In this document: one piece after another, positions 18,974-30,696 of the stretch | How positions within the stretch are numbered: the first letter of the stretch is position 1 | How the letters are laid out: the number at the start of each line of letters is the position of its first letter | Assembly: GCA_008932965.1 (NCBI GenBank) | Contig: WBXG01000004.1 | Span: forward strand, 1-32,000 | DNA: 32,000 nucleotides | Origin: Verrucomicrobiota bacterium | GTDB taxonomy: Bacteria > Verrucomicrobiota > Verrucomicrobiia > Chthoniobacterales > UBA6821 | Direction: 5' to 3' | Made by a program: the position numbers and the translations under genes | Notes under the pieces: model-generated | The model's database searches: none | The model's input: only the letters and a program-made list of their open reading frames with translations | Told to the model about the DNA's origin: nothing

Positions 18974-19738
18974 TCACTTTGTTTCAGGAACCAATGGCTG
19001 GAGTGCCGAGGTAGCAATCCAGCCTTTCTGGCCAGATTCCATCTTGACGTAGGACCAGACTCCATGACGTGATTGCAAGAGAAGGAGGGAGCCTGTGGGA
19101 ATGGAAGCAAGAATCGGTCCATTTTCGACTGGATTGGAACGAAGCGGTGTTGTTGCTGGCCTCTCCTCACGATGCTCTGGACTTGTTTTGAAATCGTATT
19201 TGGGAAGCACTATCACGATCTTGGCAGCCCTTGTTCGAGGATCGAGTGTTGTTCCTAAGAAAGCCAGAGCACTTCCTAATAAAAAAATGAAGGAGAGAGA
19301 AAGCAAGAGAAAATAGGACCTCTTCTTAGAGGATTCTTGTGCTCCAAGATAGCGTGTAAAAAAAATCCAGACTACTAGGAAAGAAGCACTCCATGCGAGG
19401 AGGGAGCCGATGATCACAAGAAAATCGGGAGAGCAGAGGGACACGAGTTTTGTTCTCCAGGTTGCTTGAATTGGAATTCCCATTTTTCCAAGTAGTTCAT
19501 TTAATTTTTCTCTAGCCTGAGAAAAATGAGGGTTGAGGACGAGTGCACGGCGTAAGGCTAAGGAGGCATCAGCAAGATCTCCTCGTGCTTCTGCTTCTAA
19601 ACCATCGTTGTAGAAGTGCTCTGGAGAATTGATGATCTGTGGTCCCGATGTGGAGGGAGGGTTCGATGCATCAGCAGCACGGAGTGGAGTGATTCCGTAG
19701 CCAAATAAAGCTATTAAAAAAAAGAGAGACCATTTCAT
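18974..19738 (-). CDS. batE: BatE-like protein (signal peptide, TPR, TM segments, C-terminal SH3b-like domain)
   Basis: TPR-like YNDGLEAEARGDLADASLALRRALVLNPHF. C-terminal ..LLLLQSRHGVWSYVKMESGQKGWIATSAL is typical of bacterial SH3 domains. Last gene of the bat operon, with a 4-nt overlap with batD. Confidence 0.65.
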   Translation of the reverse strand: MKWSLFFLIALFGYGITPLRAADASNPPSTSGPQIINSPEHFYNDGLEAEARGDLADASLALRRALVLNPHFSQAREKLNELLGKMGIPIQATWRTKLVSLCSPDFLVIIGSLLAWSASFLVVWIFFTRYLGAQESSKKRSYFLLLSLSFIFLLGSALAFLGTTLDPRTRAAKIVIVLPKYDFKTSPEHREERPATTPLRSNPVENGPILASIPTGSLLLLQSRHGVWSYVKMESGQKGWIATSALQPLVPETK

Positions 19739-21549
19739 GAGTGATGACCATGTTGAAAAACATTCAAGATCTGTACTATTTTCTGCCGCTCTTGAGGACG
19801 CAGTACAGTTTCACGTGCCCCATAATTCATTTCATCACGACGCTTAAAGATTTCCTCTAACTCAGAAAATCGAGAGGGATCTTTTTTTAATAATTCCTCC
19901 GCATAGAGGACTGCTGTTTTATAAAAGAGATCGGGAGCAAGCTGATGGTCTTGAAGTTCAGACCACATTTTTTTGAGGTGTTGTTGTAGCACTAATGATT
20001 CTCTTTTTTGATACCTCTGAAAGCCGAGATAAGCGCTCCATACAAGCAGGGCCAAGAAAAGAGCTCCTGTGGCTAGGAGGTATTCTTTACGCTGCAGAAG
20101 AGGCTGCCATGATCGTGGCGAGTAATCCTTCACCATTAAAGTCTGTGGTGCAGGAGGGATAACTGGTGGTGATGAAACTGGGGCAACAGCATTCATTGCC
20201 GATGAAGGAGTAGCTGCAGCAACTGCAGATGGAATGACTTTGAGTGGTTGTGGCTTTGTGCTCAGCGTTACATATTTTCCACTAGTGGGATTAAAATAGG
20301 AAAATAGCGAACCGGGAGTCGATGTTTTTGGCTCCTGAGCAATCATTGATATTTCAAAGGTTTTGACTCCATGGAGGGAGCCTGGATCGGGAGCATCAAC
20401 TCGATCTGTCGGAGGATATATTTTCCAACCATTGGTATCAGTGAGCTCTGGCATGCTAATAGCTTTTACATTTCCATCTCCGTCGATGGTGATAGCCAGG
20501 GTTACTGGATCTCCGAGAGTATATTTTTTAGGTAATGCCATGGCATCGATATGGAATTCTCCTATAGCTCCCGAAAAATGATCAGGACGACCTTCACTTG
20601 GAAGCGATATTGCCTCCAAGGAAATTGTATTCGATTTTAATGTTAAGGAGTGCTGTTGCATCATTCCAGCATGCCCCATTAATTGAGCCACAATATCGGG
20701 AACGTCAGCAGGAGTTGATGCAGGAAGATCAATAGCAAGATCGAGCTTTGCAGGACCTACATTGATAGGACCTGGCTTTACAGCAGAAATGAATGTATGG
20801 AAAGTAGCAACATTGTAGAGAATTCCGTTCCGTTCTTCGGTGCTAGAGAGGGGGTCACTGAGGCGTTCTACTAAAAGGCCTTCATTACTAAAATCGATAC
20901 CATGACGTGGAGAAGCATTGTAATGGGCATCGACATAAAAGCGAATTTCCGCTGGAACTACCTCTCCGACATAGAGCCTCTTTTTGGGAACAATAAGTTC
21001 ACTAAAGGCAATTTGGTTATTGGATGAGGGCTTTGTGTTAGGTGTTGTCCGAACAGGAGGAAGAGTCGCGGCAGCACCCGGTGATAAGGGGGTTTGAATG
21101 CTGTTGTTCGAGGTAGTTGAAGATCCCTCAATGGTGAGCTGCTGAGGTGATGTCCGAAAATATTTTCCATCGGCACGTACTTGAATCGATGGAATCGTAA
21201 ATGTTCCAGAGCGAAGCGGTATAATAATGTACGAGTAAAGTGAAGAAGAGCTCACTGCAAAGTTGACTATTTGCACTTGCTTGGATTGACCTGCAAGGTT
21301 GATTTGAAGACCATCTACAGCGATTTTATGGGGGACATCTGCCTCTTGAGCCCCTGTGACTTTTAGGTCCATCTGAACCATCTCACCAGCAGCAGCACGA
21401 TGACGGGATAATTCTGCTGAAACTTGAACCTCCGAAGCAGCGAAGAGAGAACTGATAAAGAACAAGAGGAATCCAAGAAAAAGGGGAAGGAAGGGCTGAC
21501 GCAGCCTAGTAAAGAGCAATGAGTAACGGGTCATGGGTAAAAGGCACAT
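19735..21549 (-). CDS. batD: BatD-like oxygen-tolerance protein
   Basis: 604 aa: signal peptide, a large beta-rich ectodomain, one C-terminal TM segment and a cytoplasmic tail. Its position after batB/C fits the BatD family. Confidence 0.7.
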   Translation of the reverse strand: MCLLPMTRYSLLFTRLRQPFLPLFLGFLLFFISSLFAASEVQVSAELSRHRAAAGEMVQMDLKVTGAQEADVPHKIAVDGLQINLAGQSKQVQIVNFAVSSSSLYSYIIIPLRSGTFTIPSIQVRADGKYFRTSPQQLTIEGSSTTSNNSIQTPLSPGAAATLPPVRTTPNTKPSSNNQIAFSELIVPKKRLYVGEVVPAEIRFYVDAHYNASPRHGIDFSNEGLLVERLSDPLSSTEERNGILYNVATFHTFISAVKPGPINVGPAKLDLAIDLPASTPADVPDIVAQLMGHAGMMQQHSLTLKSNTISLEAISLPSEGRPDHFSGAIGEFHIDAMALPKKYTLGDPVTLAITIDGDGNVKAISMPELTDTNGWKIYPPTDRVDAPDPGSLHGVKTFEISMIAQEPKTSTPGSLFSYFNPTSGKYVTLSTKPQPLKVIPSAVAAATPSSAMNAVAPVSSPPVIPPAPQTLMVKDYSPRSWQPLLQRKEYLLATGALFLALLVWSAYLGFQRYQKRESLVLQQHLKKMWSELQDHQLAPDLFYKTAVLYAEELLKKDPSRFSELEEIFKRRDEMNYGARETVLRPQERQKIVQILNVFQHGHHS

Positions 21550-21618
21550 CGTTCGAATACTATTTTTTATAAATGGAAATGTTATGATTATTATACTTTA
21601 AAAGAATTCACAAACTTT

Positions 21619-21667
21619 ACTCATCACTCATCACTCATTACTCATTACTCATTACTCATTACTCATC
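21619..21667. repeat. Heptanucleotide microsatellite (ACTCATC/ACTCATT) x7
   Basis: Read directly: actcatc actcatc actcatt actcatt actcatt actcatt actcatc. It lies in the 161-nt batB-batD spacer, 44 nt after the batB stop and 70 nt before the batD start. Confidence 0.95.
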
Positions 21668-21710
21668 ACAGATTAGGTAAATATGCTTTGTAATTTCCAC
21701 TCATCCCCTT

Positions 21711-23915
21711 TTACCAATCCTTCATCGTTTCTTCTGTTTCTTTGCGGTGTTGAAATTGCACCTGCTGCTCTTCATCCTTCATCGATTGAAGAACCGCTTC
21801 TGCTTGAGCTCGAGACATCATTCCCCCCTCACCATCTTGCGAAGGGACTGCGGCAGCGGCTTTTTGTTCTCCTCCAGAGAGAGCCCCTTGCTTTTTCTCT
21901 TGAGGTGATGGTGCAGCTTTCTCATTTTCCGAGGCAGCATTATTGAGATTTCCAGAACCTGGACTAGGAGCAGACGGATTCTGATTCTTGTTTTGAGATT
22001 GCTGGTTAGAAGACTGTTGCTGAGGAGGTGTTGGAGATTCTTGTTCACCTGATTGAGGTTGCTGCTCTTGAGCGGGGGGAGGCGATGATTTTTTTTCTTT
22101 TTGCGAATCAGGAGTAGAGGCCTCATTTTTAGCATCACTAGGAGAGGGAGAAGGGGAGGCCTCAGGATTGGAATTCCTATTAGGAGGGACCCCATTGGAA
22201 TTTTTGGGGTCTGGCGAAGGGGACTCTTTTTTTGGATCTTGAGAGGAGGATTGATCTTGATCTCCCTTGTTTGAAGGATCCTGGGAAGAATTACTATTCT
22301 GCTGAGCATCTGATTTTTGTTGGTCTTGATTTTTTTGCTGCTGGTTTTGAGCATTGTTCCCTTGCCCATTGTTGCTTGGATTTTGCTGTTGATTTTGATT
22401 GTTTTGGGGGTTCTGTTGTTGATTTTGATCCTTCTGAGGATTTTTTTTCTTTTCTTCTTCTTGTTTGTTAAAATCATCAATCATCTTTTTAACAATCGCT
22501 TGATTTTCTTGAGCCTGTTTGTTTTTAGGGTCTGCTTTGAGCACAGTGTCATAGTGTTCGAGTGCGCTCTTCCAATCTGAAAGTTTTTGAGCTCCGTCAC
22601 TGATCCCTTCCCCCTCTCTCACAAGGGAGTTTGCTAGGTTGTAGGTAGCAGCTTGTTGAATTTTTGAAGAAGAGGAGGTCATTGCTCCTGTAAAATAATC
22701 GATCGCTTTTTTATAATTCCCTTCTTTGTAGGCAGCAGCACCGGCATCAAAACGGGCCTCATCCGAGGCGTTACCATGCTTGAGTTGCTGCTCAAAAGTG
22801 GTGAGTGCTGCTCCGTAGTTACCTTGGTTATAGTCATTTAATCCAGGTGTTGTTTTTCCTAATGCAGGAAATAAAAATAAAACTAGAATCGCAACACCAC
22901 GTGGAAGGCGCCGTCTCTCATCAAGAAGCCACCAGAGCGTGAGCAGAGCAATGGCCATGCTCAAAGGCCACTCATAACGTTCAATCGGACGCCGGGTGAT
23001 CTGTACTTTTCCATTAATTCCTGAGAGAGGAAGAATTCCTTTTTGAACAATGCTTCGTGCTGCATCACTTCCGAAGGGCTCATAAAACCCACCTGTTAGG
23101 GAGGCAATCTCTTGTAACCGCTTCACATCAAGTTTTGAAAGGACCGGTTTTCCATGTTCGTCACGGACAAAATCATTCTGATAATGCTCGTTAGAAATGG
23201 GAATTAAAGAACCGTCAGGAGAGCCGATCCCAATAGTAAAAATTTTAATACCTGCTTCTTTTGCTTCTTGTGCAGCTTCCATCGAATCTCCCGCAAGATC
23301 CTCTCCGTCGGTCATCAGGATGAGGGCACGTTCTGAACCCTCCCCTTTCCCAAGCGCAGTGATGGTAAGACGAATCGTTTCAGAAATATTAGTACCCCCT
23401 TTAGGAATAATATTCGTATCTAATTCATTGAGGGCATCACGAACGGCACCATGATCGAGTGTCATGGGAGCCTGTAAAAAAGGCTTTCCAGCAAAGGCAA
23501 TGAGTCCGATACGATCCCCAGGAAGCAACTCTAGGACATCTTGTGCAAGAAGCTTTGCCCGAGCAAGTCGAGTAGGAGCGACATCGGTAGCTAACATGCT
23601 CCGTGATGTATCAATGGCGAGCATAATATCCCGACCGTGGCTCGGCGTAGCATGTTCCTCATAACCGAGACGCGGTTTTGCAAGTGCAATCAGTAAGAAG
23701 CCTATGGCAAGGAGAAGTAGTAGAGACCGTACTACTCGTTTAGTCATGCTCACACGACCTACAAGGGAGGAGCGTAACCTCACTGCGACTATTTTGGAAA
23801 TAAGCTCTCCTCTCTTTCTCTGTGCATAGAAAAACAGCATCGCTAAGGGCACTAAAAAAAGAAGAGACCACAACCACAAAGGATATTGAAAATGGAGCGT
23901 AGAATCAGATGGCAT
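21711..23915 (-). CDS. batB: BatB/BatC fusion-type protein: TM + VWA domain + TM + TPR + long Q/N/P/S-rich tail
   Basis: N-terminal FQYPLWLWSLLFLVPL. VWA MIDAS motif AIDTSRSM..LMTDGED. TPR-like segments (GNYGAALTTFEQ.., EGNYKKAIDYF..). About 200 aa of low-complexity sequence precede the conserved ..MKDW end. Confidence 0.85.
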   Translation of the reverse strand: MPSDSTLHFQYPLWLWSLLFLVPLAMLFFYAQRKRGELISKIVAVRLRSSLVGRVSMTKRVVRSLLLLLAIGFLLIALAKPRLGYEEHATPSHGRDIMLAIDTSRSMLATDVAPTRLARAKLLAQDVLELLPGDRIGLIAFAGKPFLQAPMTLDHGAVRDALNELDTNIIPKGGTNISETIRLTITALGKGEGSERALILMTDGEDLAGDSMEAAQEAKEAGIKIFTIGIGSPDGSLIPISNEHYQNDFVRDEHGKPVLSKLDVKRLQEIASLTGGFYEPFGSDAARSIVQKGILPLSGINGKVQITRRPIERYEWPLSMAIALLTLWWLLDERRRLPRGVAILVLFLFPALGKTTPGLNDYNQGNYGAALTTFEQQLKHGNASDEARFDAGAAAYKEGNYKKAIDYFTGAMTSSSSKIQQAATYNLANSLVREGEGISDGAQKLSDWKSALEHYDTVLKADPKNKQAQENQAIVKKMIDDFNKQEEEKKKNPQKDQNQQQNPQNNQNQQQNPSNNGQGNNAQNQQQKNQDQQKSDAQQNSNSSQDPSNKGDQDQSSSQDPKKESPSPDPKNSNGVPPNRNSNPEASPSPSPSDAKNEASTPDSQKEKKSSPPPAQEQQPQSGEQESPTPPQQQSSNQQSQNKNQNPSAPSPGSGNLNNAASENEKAAPSPQEKKQGALSGGEQKAAAAVPSQDGEGGMMSRAQAEAVLQSMKDEEQQVQFQHRKETEETMKDW

Positions 23916-23927
23916 CGTGTTTAGAAA

Positions 23928-24968
23928 TTAGGGGATTTTTCTCCAGAGTGTTTGGGAGAGTAACGTTTCGATCACGAGTAAGAGGGAACCTAAAGCAATC
24001 AACCACAAGAAAAAATCCCGATGATTCACATTTTTTTCAATTTCGATTTTGGTTTTTTCTAACCGATCAATTTCTTGGAAGGTTTTGTCTAACGAGGCAG
24101 AATCAGCAGCTCGGAAGTATTTTCCATCTCCAATTTTTGCAATCTCTGCCAATAGTTTTTCATCAAAATCAAAAATGACCGTTTGATAGAATGTCCTTCC
24201 AAAACGATCCTGAACGGGAACAGAAACTGGTCCTGAACTGCCAGCTCCAATAGTATAGATGCGAATACCAACGGCTTTGGCTGCCTCTGCTGCAGTCAAG
24301 GGCATGATTTTTCCAGCATTGTTGGCTCCATCGGTAAGGAGGAGAATGAGCTTGGTTTTAGCATTTCTATTTTTGAGGCGTGCAGCAGCAGATGCCAATG
24401 CCGAGCCGATAGCAGTTCCATCCTCCACGAGGCCGAGCTGAACACGATCCAGGTTATCAATGAGCCATTCGTGATCCAGCGTGATTGGACTCACGAGATA
24501 GGGACGTCCTGCAAAGGCAATGATTCCAATACGATCATTGGGTCGTGCTTCAATAAATTGTTCTGTCACCCGTTTTACTGCTTCAAGACGGCTCGCACGC
24601 TGATTTCCAATAGTATAATCCTCGGTGGACATCGAGCCAGAAACATCCAATACCAGCATAATGTCAATCCCACTTGCTTTGACATGTTGAGTAGTTTGAC
24701 CTAATTGAGGACGTGCTAGAGCCACAATAAAAAGCCCCATAGCAAGATAAAAAAAAGTGGCAAGAAAACCTCCAGCACGGGCTCGCCGCTCCTTACCTAA
24801 ATTTAGGAGCGGTTGTATTGAGGAAAAGAGCACCCCTGGAGTTCCTCCAAAACGGCCTTTCAGCCATGCAAAAAGCGGTAGCACCAGTAATCCGAATAGA
24901 ACCCATGGATGAGCAAAGGAGAATTCACCCCAGTGAGTATTAAAAAAGTGGTGCAGAAAAGAGGTCAT
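23928..24968 (-). CDS. batA: BatA-like VWA domain membrane protein
   Basis: FAHPWVLFGLLVLPL N-terminus, VWA MIDAS motif VLDVSGSM..LLTDGANN, and a C-terminal TM segment. Confidence 0.85.
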   Translation of the reverse strand: MTSFLHHFFNTHWGEFSFAHPWVLFGLLVLPLFAWLKGRFGGTPGVLFSSIQPLLNLGKERRARAGGFLATFFYLAMGLFIVALARPQLGQTTQHVKASGIDIMLVLDVSGSMSTEDYTIGNQRASRLEAVKRVTEQFIEARPNDRIGIIAFAGRPYLVSPITLDHEWLIDNLDRVQLGLVEDGTAIGSALASAAARLKNRNAKTKLILLLTDGANNAGKIMPLTAAEAAKAVGIRIYTIGAGSSGPVSVPVQDRFGRTFYQTVIFDFDEKLLAEIAKIGDGKYFRAADSASLDKTFQEIDRLEKTKIEIEKNVNHRDFFLWLIALGSLLLVIETLLSQTLWRKIP

Positions 24969-25612
24969 GATACGACCTCCTCTTCGGTTTTTGGAGCCTG
25001 TTCTACGATCTCTCCTCGAACAAACTCCTCGGCCGCTTCAATGAGGGAGAGCCGGTCGCTTTCGCTGGCTTCTCCATGAGCGAATTTTAAAAAATCAGAG
25101 CGTACCAAAAACGCCTCTAACGACTCTCTTTCCATAGGAGTAAAGCGATTGTGGTCACGTAGCGACAGGAGGAATTCCTCTGTTGTTTGGCGTGGAGCAG
25201 CTAACCCAAAAGCCGTCCCCAGATAGCCGCGCAGCAGTCCAGAAACAAAGATTCCAAAGCTATCATCACTCCCTTCCATGAGGTTTTCTTTTATTTTAAG
25301 AAGGCTTTGCAAACAGGCCTCACGCGGAGTTAGAGGTGCTTTTTGACGTAATTTTCGAATTCCAAAAAAAAGGAGAAATAGAAACAGAATAAATACAACA
25401 AGGGTAAAAATTACCTGCATCGGAGTGTAGGCAAAAAAAGAAAAAGGGCCGACGATATCATGAAGTGGGGCTGGAGCGACCTGAGGCACTTGCGGAATCG
25501 ATGCTCCCTGGAGCGCCTGCGGCAAGGAAGTGAGTGATGGCATACTTCCTAATGAGGGAGGAGGGATCTGAGAATTTGTAGGAGCGATGACTGCTAGGAG
25601 AGGAATGTTCAT
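24965..25612 (-). CDS. DUF4381-like membrane protein of MoxR/Bat operons
   Basis: Small single-TM protein in the conserved position between DUF58 and batA. 4-nt overlaps at both ends. Confidence 0.55.
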   Translation of the reverse strand: MNIPLLAVIAPTNSQIPPPSLGSMPSLTSLPQALQGASIPQVPQVAPAPLHDIVGPFSFFAYTPMQVIFTLVVFILFLFLLFFGIRKLRQKAPLTPREACLQSLLKIKENLMEGSDDSFGIFVSGLLRGYLGTAFGLAAPRQTTEEFLLSLRDHNRFTPMERESLEAFLVRSDFLKFAHGEASESDRLSLIEAAEEFVRGEIVEQAPKTEEEVVS

Positions 25613-26499
25613 CTTGTTTTACGGCGTTCGCGTGATGCAAAAAATGATCGTAGTGTAGGCAGGTAATCCTCGTTTGTTCGCAAAGGAACCATATCAATAC
25701 GGCGTGCTCCAAAGAGATGCAGGAGCTTGGAGGCATGACTCCTTGCTTCCTCTTGATATGCTTCACGAACTTTTTTTGAAGCAGTGTTGACTTCGATTTG
25801 AGCTCCTGTTTCAGGGTCCTCTAAGGTAATCACCCCCACATCAGGAAGCCTCTCCTCTACGGGATCAATCATGGGAAGAGCAATAAGATCGTGGCGTTTT
25901 GAAGTCACGTTCAAGGGCCGAGAAAAATCGTGCTCATCTAAAAAATCTGAAATGACAAAGACAATGGCTTTGCGATGCATCACTCTATTGAGATAATCCA
26001 ATGCCCCATGAATATTGGTCTTACATCCCTGAGGCTGAAAATAAAACATTTCACGCAGAAGCCTTAAATGATGCATGCGTCCTTTTTTAGGAGGCAAGAA
26101 GAGTTCAATCTGATCGGAAAAAAGAAGTAATCCTACTTTGTCATTGTTGTAAAGAGCGCTCAAAGCAAGCACTGCTGCTACTTCCGCAGCCACTTCTCGT
26201 TTACTTTGCTCCACACTTCCAAAGTTTCCTGAAGCACTCACATCCAAAAGAATCATGACCGTTACTTCCCGCTCTTCTTTGAATTTTTTGATATGGAGGT
26301 CCCCAGTACGTGCACTCACATTCCAGTCAATCGAGCGAATTTCATCTCCTGCAGCGTACGGGCGCACCTCTTCAAAATTCATACCCTGTCCTTTGAAGAC
26401 ACTTTGATATTGGCCTGCAAAGGAAGATTCTACCAAGCGCTTGGTTCGAAGCTCTAGTCGACGGATTTTACGCGTCATTTCTTGGGAGTCTTTCATCAC
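25609..26499 (-). CDS. DUF58 domain protein (VWA-like, MoxR partner)
   Basis: ..YAAGDEIRSIDWNVSARTGDLHIKKFKEEREVTVMILLDVSASG.. is the hallmark DUF58 motif. It follows moxR. Confidence 0.85.
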   Translation of the reverse strand: MMKDSQEMTRKIRRLELRTKRLVESSFAGQYQSVFKGQGMNFEEVRPYAAGDEIRSIDWNVSARTGDLHIKKFKEEREVTVMILLDVSASGNFGSVEQSKREVAAEVAAVLALSALYNNDKVGLLLFSDQIELFLPPKKGRMHHLRLLREMFYFQPQGCKTNIHGALDYLNRVMHRKAIVFVISDFLDEHDFSRPLNVTSKRHDLIALPMIDPVEERLPDVGVITLEDPETGAQIEVNTASKKVREAYQEEARSHASKLLHLFGARRIDMVPLRTNEDYLPTLRSFFASRERRKTR

Positions 26500-26544
26500 A
26501 CTAATAAAAAATGATCATGAGAAGATTGAAATTTATTTTTCCTT

Positions 26545-26576
26545 AAAAAAGAGGAAGCAAGAAGAATCGTGCTTCC
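26545..26576 (-). terminator. Intrinsic-terminator-like hairpin directly after moxR, inside the operon
   Basis: In minus sense: GGAAGCA (10-nt loop) TGCTTCC followed by TCTTTTTT. The 7-bp stem is at 26553-26559/26570-26576 and the A-run on the + strand is at 26545-26552. It starts 6 nt after the moxR TAG. Confidence 0.45.
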
Positions 26577-26582
26577 CCGTGG

Positions 26583-27572
26583 CTAAGGAACAGGGAGCCC
26601 CTCAAAAATTCTCCCAATAACCTCCTCTGAGGTGATCGAATCTGCCTCTGCTTCGTAGCTTACGGCAACACGATGGCGCAAGACATCAAGACCCACAGAT
26701 TTCACATCATGAGGAGTGACATAACCACGACCATGGAGAAAAGCGTGGGCCTTGGCTGCAAGCGTAAGAAAGATGGTAGCACGCGGGGAGGCTCCATAAC
26801 GAATCAACCCATCGAGTTTTAGCTTGTAGACCGCTGGCTCTCGTGTGGCCCAAACAAGATCCACGATGTAATCTTTCACCTTTTCATCCACATAGATCTC
26901 ATTGACCACATCCCTAGCTCGAAGAATTTGCTCTTTAGAAACGAGGCGCTCCACATGGAGTCGTGGAGAGGAGGTTGCCATGGCATCTAAAATCTGTCGC
27001 TCCTCTTTACGCGTAGGATACCCAACCACAATCTTGAGCATGAAGCGGTCTAATTGAGCCTCTGGCAATGGATAGGTCCCCTCTTGCTCTAAAGGATTTT
27101 GTGTGGCCAAGACAAGGAAGGGATCAGGGAGAGGGAAAGTCTCATCACTAATGGTCACATGCCTCTCTTGCATGGCTTCTAGCAAAGCGCTTTGCACCTT
27201 GGCTGGAGCCCGGTTGATTTCATCGGCCAAGATCAGATTGGCAAATAGAGGGCCTTTGCGTGTCGTAAAAACACTCTCTTTAGGATTGTAGATAAGCGTC
27301 CCAACAAGATCAGCTGGAAGAAGGTCTGGAGTGAATTGCAAACGTTGAAAGGAGGCATCAATACAGGAGGAGAGGGTTTTGACCGTTAATGTCTTAGCAA
27401 GGCCTGGAACACCTTCTAGTAACACATGCCCATTACTCAGCAAGCCGATCAGCAATCCTTGAACGAGCCCTTGCTGACCGATGACAACGCGACTGATTTC
27501 TTTTGTGAGTGGAGGCACCCAAGAGCCTGTTTCTTGGACCCGACGATCAAGTTCTTGAACAGAATGATTCAT
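26583..27572 (-). CDS. moxR: MoxR-family AAA+ ATPase
   Basis: Walker A LLEGVPGLAKT and Walker B LILADEINRAPAKVQSALLEAMQE. 329 aa, which is canonical MoxR length. Confidence 0.92.
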   Translation of the reverse strand: MNHSVQELDRRVQETGSWVPPLTKEISRVVIGQQGLVQGLLIGLLSNGHVLLEGVPGLAKTLTVKTLSSCIDASFQRLQFTPDLLPADLVGTLIYNPKESVFTTRKGPLFANLILADEINRAPAKVQSALLEAMQERHVTISDETFPLPDPFLVLATQNPLEQEGTYPLPEAQLDRFMLKIVVGYPTRKEERQILDAMATSSPRLHVERLVSKEQILRARDVVNEIYVDEKVKDYIVDLVWATREPAVYKLKLDGLIRYGASPRATIFLTLAAKAHAFLHGRGYVTPHDVKSVGLDVLRHRVAVSYEAEADSITSEEVIGRIFEGLPVP

Positions 27573-27676
27573 AGACTGGAATTTTAAATGAAGTTGGAAA
27601 AAAAGGATTTTATTGAATCGACACTAAAAATAAAGAAATGTTCAAAAAAAATTAAAAATTTTTTTCTATTTCCTGC

Positions 27677-27857
27677 TAGCCCGGATATTTCATACTGATC
27701 GTGACGAGGAGGCAGCGAAGGCTGATGGGGCAAGGCGAGCGATGAAGTCTGACGACGGCTGTATGAGTACATACTGCCCGAGGAAGACTTCGAGATCAAC
27801 GCAGCATCCATCTGACTTCCCGGTCTCCGTAGTAGATCAGAATGAAATATTTGGGCT
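27677..27857 (+). repeat. Structured TIR-bounded ~180-nt element, copy 1
   Basis: Starts tagCCCGGATATTTCAT and ends ATGAAATATTTGGGcta. About 100 central nt (27721-27818) are identical to copy 2 (27901-27998). Confidence 0.9.
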
Positions 27858-28038
27858 AACCCGGATATTTCATACTGATCGTGACGAGGAGGCCGCGAAA
27901 GCTGATGGGGCAAGGCGAGCGATGAAGTCTGACGACGGCTGTATGAGTACATACTGCCCGAGGAAGACTTCGAGATCAACGCAGCATCCATCTGACTTTC
28001 CAGCTTATGCAGGTGATCAAGATGAAATACCTGGGTTA
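27857..28038 (+). repeat. Structured TIR-bounded ~180-nt element, copy 2 (head-to-tail with copy 1, 180-nt period)
   Basis: Starts taaCCCGGATATTTCAT and ends ATGAAATACCTGGGttaa. Its right arm contains the last codons and stop of purD. Confidence 0.9.
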
Positions 28039-29303
28039 AAAGAAGCTCCTCCAATGTCCCGTCGATATTGCTTTCCTTCAAAGTTAATCAAATCGGTAGC
28101 GGCATACGCCTTTCTACGAGCCTCTTCGAGTGTTTCTCCCAGCGCAGTCACTCCTAGGACACGTCCTCCAGCAGTGTAAAGAGTACCATCTTCCTCTTTG
28201 GCTCCTGCATGAAAGAGCACCACTTCTGGGTCAGAGGCCAAAGCCGCTTCCATTCCGTTAATCACCTTTCCTTTCTCAATGGTTCCAGGATACCCACCCG
28301 AGGCTACGACAATACAAACGGCAGGGCGTGAATCCCAGAGAGGCTTGTGCGTGGCAAGCGTTCCATCGAGTGTCGCCTCTATAAGATCGAGTAGATCGCT
28401 CTTAAGACGTCGCATGAGGACTTGAGTCTCGGGATCTCCAAAGCGACAGTTAAATTCTAGCACTTTGGGGCCTTGAGGAGTGATCATCACCCCAGGGAAA
28501 AGCATCCCTTGAAAACCAAGACCATCGGTTTCAAGCCCACGTAAAAAAGGTTTTAAGAGGATACGTTGAAGTTCTTCCAGAATGCTTTGGGGACACACTC
28601 CGGAAGGGGAGATGGTTCCCATGCCTCCGGTGTTGAGTCCTTGGTCTCCCTCAAGCGCCCGCTTGTGATCGCGTGCATCAGGAAAAAGAAGGGCCTCTTT
28701 CCCATCTATGAGTGCGTGCAGAGAACATTCTACTCCCGTGAGGAATTCCTCAATGACAATGGTTGCTCCAGCAGCTCCAAAAATTTTCTCCTCCATCGAT
28801 TGCCGCACTGCTTCACATGCCTCTTTTAAATTCTGAGCAATCACGACCCCTTTTCCAAGAGCGAGTCCATCGGCTTTCACAACGATTGGATAAGAGGCAC
28901 TTCGAACATACTCGTAAGCAGAAGCAGCATCGGTGAATGTTTTTGAATCGGCTGTGGGAATTCCATGGCGTTGCATGAAATCCTTAGCAAACGATTTGGA
29001 AGATTCTAAACGTGCTCCGGAGGCCGTAGGGCCAAAAACACGAAGTCCTGCTTCTTTAAAAAGATCAACAATACCGAGTGCCAATGGATCGTCTGGACCG
29101 ACAATGGTGAGATCGATTTTTTTCTCTTTCGCAAAGGCGAGTAACCCTGCGCAATCGGAAGCTGCAATCGGAATATTCACTCCGAGGGCCGCTGTGCCCG
29201 AATTTCCAGGAGCAGTAAAGAGACGTGTGAGCCGAGGACTCTGTTTTAATTTCCAGGCGAGGGCATGTTCTCGGCCGCCGGAGCCGATGAGAAGAATATT
29301 CAT
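28017..29303 (-). CDS. purD: Phosphoribosylamine-glycine ligase
   Basis: MNILLIGSGGREHALAWKL..VVKADGLALGKGV..GGMG..EFNCRFGDPETQ.. is canonical PurD. I prefer the ATG at 29303; the tracked start at 29321 is a TTG. Confidence 0.93.
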   Translation of the reverse strand: MNILLIGSGGREHALAWKLKQSPRLTRLFTAPGNSGTAALGVNIPIAASDCAGLLAFAKEKKIDLTIVGPDDPLALGIVDLFKEAGLRVFGPTASGARLESSKSFAKDFMQRHGIPTADSKTFTDAASAYEYVRSASYPIVVKADGLALGKGVVIAQNLKEACEAVRQSMEEKIFGAAGATIVIEEFLTGVECSLHALIDGKEALLFPDARDHKRALEGDQGLNTGGMGTISPSGVCPQSILEELQRILLKPFLRGLETDGLGFQGMLFPGVMITPQGPKVLEFNCRFGDPETQVLMRRLKSDLLDLIEATLDGTLATHKPLWDSRPAVCIVVASGGYPGTIEKGKVINGMEAALASDPEVVLFHAGAKEEDGTLYTAGGRVLGVTALGETLEEARRKAYAATDLINFEGKQYRRDIGGASFNPGISS

Positions 29304-29360
29304 GTTGGAAAAATTAGCCAAGAGAGATAGCCTCGTCCATCTTCAACTTGTTCCATTTCT

Positions 29361-29705
29361 ATGACCCTCTGCCTGCTTAAATCTAAAATTCACCGAGCCA
29401 CAGTCACTGGTGCTTCGCTTGATTACGAAGGAAGCTTAACTATTGCTGCAGACCTCGCAGAACGTGTAGGACTCCTTCCTTATGAGAAAATCCTAGTTGG
29501 CAATATGGCTAATGGAGAGCGTTTTGAAACCTATGTCATTTATGGAAAAGTAGGGTCTGGAGTTATTGAACTTAATGGAGCTACCGCCTTGCTTGGAAAA
29601 ATTGGAGATCTTCTTACCATCATGTCCTTTGCATGGATAGAGGCTGCTTCTACACATCACCCTAAGATTATCACTCTTGGACGTAGTAATATTATTCAGT
29701 CGTAA
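29361..29705 (+). CDS. panD: Aspartate 1-decarboxylase
   Basis: LKSKIHRATVTGASLDYEGSLTIA..NGERFETYVI..LNGA collinear with E. coli PanD, including the G-S self-cleavage site. Confidence 0.92.
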   Translation: MTLCLLKSKIHRATVTGASLDYEGSLTIAADLAERVGLLPYEKILVGNMANGERFETYVIYGKVGSGVIELNGATALLGKIGDLLTIMSFAWIEAASTHHPKIITLGRSNIIQS

Positions 29706-29885
29706 CCCGGATATTTCATTCTAATCGTGACGAGGAGACCGCGAAGGCTGATGGGGTAAGGCAGAAGAGCATTTTGATGCCGGGCTGTATGTGTACATAC
29801 TGTCCAAATCAAAATGTGAGTCTAACGCAGCATCCACCCTTGCTTCCCGGCCTCCGCAGTAGATTAGTGTGAAATATCCGGGTTA
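29703..29885 (+). repeat. Structured TIR-bounded ~180-nt element, copy 3
   Basis: TAACCCGGATATTTCAtt...gtGAAATATCCGGGTTAA, with a perfect 15-16 bp TIR. The first three nt are the panD stop codon. Confidence 0.9.
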
Positions 29886-29910
29886 ACCCGCATATTTCAT
29901 TCTAATCGTG
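29883..29910 (+). repeat. Left-end stub of the same element (copy 4, ~28 nt)
   Basis: taacccgcatatttcattctaatcgtg matches the copy 3 left end with 1 mismatch, then diverges into tadA coding sequence. It shares the TTAA with the right end of copy 3. Confidence 0.75.
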
Positions 29911-30418
29911 CAGTGGTTGCTGCATTTAGATCCAAGCTATTTCGTTTTTCATTGAAGAATTTTTTGAGGAGGCGAGCGCACTCCTCCTCTCGTACTCCAC
30001 TTTTAATATCGCATTTATGATTGAGGGTTGGCATTTGAAGAATATTAAGAAGCCCTCCAGCTGCACCTCCACGAGAATCACCACAGCCAAAAATCACCCG
30101 CCTCACACGTGCATTTACGGAGGCTCCTGCACACATGGGGCATGGCTCTTTAGTGACATAGAGATCACACTCATTTAATCGCCAGTCCCCAATGACCGAT
30201 GCAGCTTGAGTAATTGCTAAGATTTCTGCATGTGCTGTGGCATCTTTCAACGCCTCTACTTGATTGTGAGCACGGGCAATGATGCGATCGCAATAGACTA
30301 TGACAGCTCCTACGGGGACCTCCTCCTTTTCATATGCATGTAGGGCCTGGCGCAATGCTTGCTGCATAAAATAATCGTCACTCTTAAGGTCAATCGTCTC
30401 TGTTTGATAAAAATCCAT
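29897..30418 (-). CDS. tadA: tRNA-specific adenosine deaminase
   Basis: ..VPVGAVIV..HAEILAI..EPCPMCAGA.. is the CDA-fold zinc motif (HAE / PCxxC). 173 aa. Confidence 0.9.
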   Translation of the reverse strand: MDFYQTETIDLKSDDYFMQQALRQALHAYEKEEVPVGAVIVYCDRIIARAHNQVEALKDATAHAEILAITQAASVIGDWRLNECDLYVTKEPCPMCAGASVNARVRRVIFGCGDSRGGAAGGLLNILQMPTLNHKCDIKSGVREEECARLLKKFFNEKRNSLDLNAATTARLE

Positions 30419-30442
30419 AAATTTAGTTTTAAAAGAAAAGTC

Positions 30443-30696
30443 TTAACCCGCATATTTCATACTGGTTCCTTGCAAGGCGCTGCGAATCCTGATGCAGAAA
30501 CCACCGGCGGTCGGGAGACCACGGTGGAGACTGCCCTGAAAGGGCGAGACGAGCGGGAGCGAGCGAGTCAACGAAGGTGATGGATTGCAACGACGGCTGT
30601 ATGTTTCATACTGCCCGAGGAGCAATTCGAAGCTGACGCAGCATCCATCTCACTTCCCGGCTTCCGTAGTAAATGAGTATGAAATATCCAGGTTAA
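30443..30696 (+). repeat. Long (254-nt) variant of the structured element, copy 5
   Basis: TTAACCCGCATATTTCAT...ATGAAATATCCAGGTTAA. It shares the core gacggctgtatg..catactgcccgagga and cgcagcatccatc, and carries extra GC-rich material in the left arm (about 30465-30570). Confidence 0.85.

Follow-up and report, generated by a model that had tools for sequence, protein, structure and literature searches.

An abundant TA-duplicating foldback element with modular stems in freshwater Chthoniobacterales

The window analyzed in this study is a 32,000-nucleotide stretch of contig WBXG01000004.1 (assembly GCA_008932965.1) from a Verrucomicrobiota bacterium of the order Chthoniobacterales, and its G+C content is 42%. 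Adjoining the genes purD, panD, and tadA, the window carries a repeat in four full copies and one solo terminus, all on the + strand (Table 1). A preliminary description of this DNA noted stems that differ between copies yet remain complementary, and took these compensatory changes as pointing to a selected secondary structure, a candidate structured RNA. We find that the repeat is a TA-duplicating foldback MITE (a miniature inverted-repeat transposable element) of ∼183 bp, whose anatomy, mobility, modules, chimeras, and conversion events are directly visible when copies are compared. The interpretation we consider probable is that the repeats are copies of a non-autonomous foldback MITE, with stems that arise from subfamily modules and from the dynamics of palindromes at the DNA level. 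That an RNA fold is under selection is unproven, and we consider it possible but unlikely.

Table 1. Element copies and their parts in the window, with the arm sequences of the inner stem modules
Feature	Position	Strand	Remarks
MITE copy 1, subfamily A/A'	27677–27858	+	Flanking TA at 27677–27678; TA at 27857–27858 common with copy 2
MITE copy 2, subfamily A/A'	27857–28038	+	Tandem with copy 1; one TA in common
MITE copy 3, subfamily B/B'	29703–29885	+	At TA of panD stop codon; syntenic loci L002 and L003 without copy
Solo left terminal repeat ("copy 4")	29884–29910	+	Found in all related strains
MITE copy 5, subfamily C/C', long form, 252 nt	30444–30695	+	
72-nt extra module, left arm of copy 5	30499–30570	+	Recurs in other long variants
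Conserved palindromic central hairpin, copy 1	27757–27776	+	Point of half-element exchange
Central hairpin motif, further sites	27937–27956, 29783–29802, 30595–30613		
Inner stem module A, around central hairpin	27744–27791	+	GAAGTCT/AGACTTC
Inner stem module B	29770–29816		CATTTTGAT/ATCAAAATG
Inner stem module B2			CATTTTGAC/GTCACAATG, one mismatch
Inner stem module C	30582–30628		GGATTGC/GCAATTC
Inner stem module D			GGATTGTGAT/ATCACAATTC

Anatomy, mobility, and abundance of the element

The element ends in 21–25-bp terminal inverted repeats, written as TA followed by A/GCCCGGATATTTCATACTGATC... or TA followed by ACCCGGATATTTCAT. The window contains eight matches to the terminal repeat and four to the central hairpin (GGCTGTATG-N3-4-CATACTG), with 0.00 expected in each case. 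Whole copies form one long hairpin that runs from the termini to the center (z = −7.4, −7.9, and −3.4), and terminal helix 1 is paired at 90.9% over 100 copies. The bases just inside the TA are symmetrical (A...T or G...C), and this terminal pair covaries (AU 56, GC 18). Element sizes range from 115 to 287 bp, and most are 183 bp.

The stems reported in the preliminary description lie exactly where it placed them. These are the inner stems gaagtct (27744–27750)/agacttc (27785–27791), which is repeated in copy 2, cattttgat (29770–29778)/atcaaaatg (29808–29816) of copy 3, and ggattgc (30582–30588)/gcaattc (30622–30628) of copy 5 with its one G–T pair, together with the outer stems ctgatc/gatcag (27695–27700/27835–27840) and ctaatc/gattag (29721–29726/29862–29867). 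Its picture of conserved, single-stranded blocks holds in part. The blocks common to all subfamilies are limited to the termini, the central hairpin, ACAAGG, and ACGCAG(C/T)A. gaaggctgatgg and gcccgagga are conserved within some subfamilies only, and gaaggctgatgg pairs with ccatctgacttc rather than being single-stranded. As that description had concluded, the element is not protein-coding, since loop indels are not multiples of three and the open reading frames (ORFs) across the tandem copies match no protein family. Two such ORFs span the tandem copies, one of 165 aa (27584–28081, − strand) and one of 145 aa (27742–28179, + strand), and both are probably artefacts of the repeat.

Size variants were also observed. 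Long forms have an extra left-arm module of ∼72–100 nt (ACCACCGGCGGTCGGGAG...GGGCGAGACGAGCGGGAGCGAGCGAGTCA) with small hairpins of its own, found in copy 5 of the window and at sampled loci L001:10343–10612 and L001:14414–14865. A 115-nt derivative at L068:3185–3299 is without the inner stem and central hairpin, and forms a perfect foldback with intact termini.

Contigs with identical PanD carry differing elements. At the panD–tadA site, L002 and L003 read TCG-TA-ACCCGC and contain the solo terminus only, whereas at this point the window and L006 each contain precisely one element together with a second TA. In L001 and L004, a different element, of the long C type, occupies the identical TA. 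L001 also has a B-type copy nested at a TA within the extra left-arm module of a long C-type copy. TA is present on both sides of the element, and the comparison of empty with filled sites, together with the nested insertion, demonstrates target-site duplication. The repeat lacks coding capacity, has terminal inverted repeats, duplicates TA, and exists as dispersed polymorphic copies, as is characteristic of MITEs.

A terminal-repeat scan of one genome per species yielded 98 stretches. Those that bear the element are all from freshwater Chthoniobacterales/Spartobacteria metagenome-assembled genomes (MAGs), namely Kiruna_bin-02438, Tobar2m-G38, Deming_bin.170, SMAG_U8253, and one Lac Pavin MAG. 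Terminus matches in Nanoarchaeia, Prevotella, Alsobacter, and others were rejected as chance matches with no element there, and a scan of viral contigs likewise gave one chance match and no element. A profile search of 764 kb returned 269 nonoverlapping matches (121 full length), and an independent metagenome scan provided a further 280 matches in 758 kb. Two MAGs hold at least 97 and at least 115 matches, and the element accounts for 5–6% of the sampled blocks that contain it. Freshwater Chthoniobacterales MAGs hold at least 100 copies per genome. In many cases contig ends fall within element copies, which indicates that the element fragments MAG assemblies.

Exchange of stem modules between copies

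When all 117 unique full copies are compared, a small number of discrete modules (A, B/B2, C, and D) accounts for the inner arms and three types (a, c, and d) for the outer arms, and the left arms of different subfamilies are 63–82% identical. More distant species have other inner stems, such as TTTGAGC/GCTCAAA (L085) and TTTTGGC/GCCAAAA (L032). Arms are matched in 77 of the 97 classified copies, and the remaining 20, at distinct loci, are chimeras with nonmatching arms, including left A with right C', D with B', and C with A'. The fold of chimeras is weaker (−72.5 versus −86.4 kcal/mol, p = 6e-6). Chimeric types such as aACc are nevertheless present in two species, at four or more separate loci.

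The metagenome set has no chimera among its 25 fully classified copies, compared with 20 of 97 in the first set. Because the share of chimeras differs between sets, a measure of the inner stem that does not depend on classification was added. A copy's own arms form an inner stem of at least seven consecutive pairs in 66% and 65% of copies in two independent sets, whereas random left/right combinations reach this length in 33% and 30%.

Exchange between copies is seen in several forms. Two left or two right halves are joined head to head at the palindromic center at L097:3457–3639, L034:4341–4523, and L016:2680–2866, which implies that the central hairpin is a site of strand switching or of recombination of the inversion type. 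At the moxR–purD site, copy 2 of the window and its ortholog at L006:8497–8679 differ by a ∼45-nt patch over the variant of the central hairpin and over the right inner arm, which it swaps from A' to C'. Strains with one copy, such as L002 (L002:8497–8679), have the left part of copy 1 joined to the right part of copy 2. Comparison of orthologous sites thus shows directly that copies undergo gene conversion and, in tandem, unequal recombination. In some variants the center has been deleted or replaced (L061, L032:5552, and L068:3185; the 115-nt form and forms of 172–188 nt).

The changes in the inner stem are clustered, multi-base, and perfectly complementary. Between modules C and D, for example, the right arm changes from GGAGC to ATCAC while the left arm shows two transitions. 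Template switching in quasi-palindromes is known to yield multi-base compensatory changes in one event (PMC8794818). The stems that are different yet complementary are real, but most are subfamily modules shuffled by recombination and do not amount to proof of a selected RNA.

Covariation, strand-specific folding, and their explanation

The preliminary description had proposed that many copies be aligned and searched for covariation. In a 100-copy MAFFT alignment of mixed subfamilies, RNAalifold gave no consensus structure, and the subfamily-A consensus fold was therefore mapped onto the alignment for pair counts. Cell-based measures beat all 500 shuffles: 83.2% of cells are paired, versus 79.3% in shuffles and 31–45% with slid partners, and 299 cells have a double change versus 166 in shuffles. 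Measures that are robust to relatedness do not exceed the shuffles significantly. Pairs with a double change number 31 versus 29.7 (a value reached by 187 of 500 shuffles), and further pair types number 94 versus 91 (reached by 116 of 500).

The top 100 column pairs by mutual information are all located within the same arm, and structural pairs (mean 0.25) score no higher than same-arm pairs (0.27). This same-arm linkage of the strongest covarying pairs is module linkage. Outside the termini and center, arm complementarity is 52–61% within subfamilies versus 44–57% across them, and most stem changes within subfamilies break pairs. The co-evolution of the arms is real but concentrated in the 7–10-bp inner stem. 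The arms do stay complementary through two-sided changes, as originally noticed, but the step from there to a selected RNA is undercut by the discrete modules, the chimeras, the same-arm linkage, and the nonsignificant robust measures.

These patterns can be brought together in a model for the MITE. An IS630/Tc1-mariner-type transposase presumably moves the element in trans, with insertion at TA and duplication of the TA. The two ∼90-nt halves are old, imperfect inverted copies of one another, so that either DNA strand or any transcript folds as a long hairpin. The family has split into subfamilies differing in their arm modules, and copies recombine and undergo gene conversion at common sequence blocks, chiefly the palindromic central hairpin, so that matched and mismatched arm combinations both arise. 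Wholesale and perfectly complementary replacement of the 7–10-bp inner stem is most readily attributed to one-step DNA events in the quasi-palindrome, either template switching or arm-to-arm conversion, after which a master copy with a replaced stem would be amplified. Copies whose + strand still pairs may propagate slightly better.

Several observations weigh against this model. The minimum free energy (MFE) of the + strand is lower than that of the opposite strand in 113 of 117 copies, by 13.7 kcal/mol on average, and in 49 of 53 further copies, by 10.3 kcal/mol on average, or in 162 of 170 combined. With pairs defined without favoring either strand, and with events counted within subfamilies and partly linked, G·U variants are on average found in more copies than are A·C variants (mean frequencies, 0.135 versus 0.092, p = 0.012) and are also more frequent than transversion variants (p = 0.00015). 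This frequency signal hints at a single-strand constraint, something not expected under a model of purely double-stranded DNA. The asymmetric internal loops ACAAGG (left) and ACGCAGYA (right) are kept across subfamilies, although mechanisms that perfect a palindrome would by themselves tend to erase them. Finally, a search of ∼1.5 Mb of loci, covering terminus pairs 0.5–4 kb apart and the surroundings of solo termini, found no autonomous element or transposase with matching termini. MAG assemblies frequently lose insertion sequences. Candidates for an autonomous parent (a domainless ORF, an FGE-sulfatase, and a 1022-aa ORF) were rejected as ordinary genes between separate MITEs, and the ORFs adjoining solo termini in L043 and L047 were uninformative in this regard.

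The strand-specific signal is modest. The subfamily consensus arms show no asymmetry between G·T and A·C oppositions (1/2, 6/5, 3/4, 5/4, and 6/7), which indicates that the energy asymmetry stems from variants in individual copies. The number of G·U events does not significantly exceed that of A·C events (68 versus 56, p = 0.32). Where an intergenic region lies between co-directional genes, these genes are antisense to the + strand of the element in 41 versus 20 cases in the first set (p = 0.01) and 30 versus 17 in the second (p = 0.08), for a total of 71 versus 37 (binomial p about 0.001) over loci L007–L104 and L106 onward. It follows that the strand present in read-through mRNA would mostly be the one with the weaker fold. 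Candidate causes of this orientation bias are the direction of replication, the avoidance of mRNA hairpins, and, on the + strand, a Shine–Dalgarno-like GAGGAGG together with a mini-ORF.

In its general form, the explanation suggested by these signals is that the element is a mobile strand-specific structured nucleic acid, whose + strand, as RNA or single-stranded DNA, would have to fold for the element to propagate or act. We regard this as unlikely. Its RNA version, in which the + strand is transcribed as in bcr1, a mobile structured RNA of the Bacillus cereus group, and its fold, with G·U tolerated, is selected as an antisense or regulatory RNA or an RNA-stability module, also appears unlikely. 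The strand asymmetry, the G·U frequencies, the conserved asymmetric loops, the compensatory inner stems of the more distant species, and the bcr1 precedent (PMC3184786) all favor such an RNA. They are to be set against an Rfam search with no match at the gathering score and only chance-level matches at E up to 10, three promoter-like sites versus 3.9 expected with none within the fold, no terminator-like sites, and a + strand that is mostly antisense to its co-directional neighbors. Moreover, 20% of classified copies are chimeric, ∼35% of copies have no inner stem of at least 7 bp, the center is lost or replaced in some variants, insertions turn over rapidly among strains with identical PanD, and neither the G·U event count nor the phylogeny-robust covariation is significant. 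If the constraint instead acts on DNA, an extruded hairpin or single strand, for example at a replication fork, might join the termini for the transposase, with selection on the element rather than on the host. The strand asymmetry and G·U signal also fit this idea, matched copies outnumber chimeras by about 4:1, and the orientation bias could mirror replication direction. However, TA duplication and terminal inverted repeats point to cut-and-paste DDE transposition of double-stranded DNA, IS630/Tc1 transposition of this kind is not known to require a hairpin, and the spread of chimeras such as aACc shows that poor pairing is no bar to propagation. We consider this DNA hairpin quite unlikely.

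Some copies might instead have been recruited by the host as cis elements after genes, serving as terminators, stabilizers of mRNA 3' ends, or RNase III sites. Copies do lie at gene ends, often over stop codons, and 26% are in convergent intergenic regions versus 13% of the background. Such a location would be expected just as much if the TA of stop codons is targeted and insertions at gene ends are tolerated. An intrinsic terminator was rejected, since no T-tract site is present. Insertions differ between close strains, and the orientation bias puts the weaker-folding strand in mRNAs. Host recruitment is accordingly very improbable.

Gene ends, related elements, and significance

The last codons and stop codon of purD (minus strand; stop at 28017–28019) come from the right terminus of copy 2, and those of tadA (minus strand) are encoded by the solo left terminus. 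The resulting protein ends, ...FNPGISS* (28017–28038) and ...ARLE* (29897–29910), are MITE-encoded in related strains as well, so these insertions are now part of the genes. All elements of the window lie within its last 4.5 kb. The preceding minus-strand row of MoxR-type AAA ATPase, DUF58, VWA, and BatD genes (19735–27572) is element-free, and within its 734-aa VWA/TPR gene there are two tandem 30-nt units that are 77% identical (22368–22427).

Correia elements are high-copy, intergenic foldback MITEs of ∼100–155 bp with terminal inverted repeats and TA duplication, and their subtypes are combinations of different left and right ends. To our knowledge, they have no cognate transposase. Compared by architecture alone, the Correia/NEMIS elements of Neisseria resemble the present one as short TA-flanked foldback MITEs with mixed ends. 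They differ in having apparently unrelated sequences and hosts of another phylum, and neither an IHF site nor an outward promoter was detected in our element. The ERIC/IRU and YPAL sequences of enterobacteria are full-length imperfect palindromes with internal insertion variants that form RNA hairpins when co-transcribed. The first two features recur here; in contrast, hosts and sequences are different, and TA flanks and at least 100 copies per small freshwater genome are peculiar to our element. By analogy, its architecture appears comparable to that of Correia/NEMIS, ERIC, and bcr1 (PMC3184786; PMC2229807), and the NEMIS fold has been illustrated (PMC3184786).

The element bcr1 is a mobile repeat whose RNA fold is reported to be kept by compensatory changes yet repeatedly lost; it has 5-bp direct-repeat flanks and forms a cruciform of two stem-loops (PMC3184786). 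Naming it the closest precedent, as had been done at the outset, is a fair analogy, because both are mobile repeats (∼155–183 bp) with strain-variable positions and the same mixed picture of fold conservation. Our element nonetheless falls outside the bcr1 family, being TA-flanked, folded as a single long hairpin, and hosted by Verrucomicrobia. In addition, transcription has been shown for bcr1, whereas the present element is known from sequence alone. TA duplication and terminal inverted repeats are shared with MITEs derived from IS630/Tc1-mariner elements (Stowaway-like; RUP and Nezha in bacteria), the difference being that the sampled loci yielded no IS630-type partner whose termini match. 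Its own transposase and the terminal repeats are all that the IS630-family element ISY100 requires (PMC2170065).

Our findings describe a previously undescribed and extremely abundant MITE family in uncultured freshwater Chthoniobacterales, one that reshapes gene ends by placing the stop codons of purD and tadA inside itself. They also provide a cautionary case. When a mobile element is palindromic, stems that look compensatory can come from subfamily modules, recombination, and template switching, and covariation by itself is therefore not enough to demonstrate an RNA. If the weak strand-specific signals hold, the family would offer a natural system in which to ask whether fold stability controls MITE proliferation. 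Should the + strand indeed have to fold, variants that preserve pairing through G·U would spread and those with A·C would remain rare, and the element would be tolerated by its host chiefly in antisense orientation to genes. The element would then be a Verrucomicrobial counterpart of bcr1, with a measurable fitness link from its fold to its copy number.

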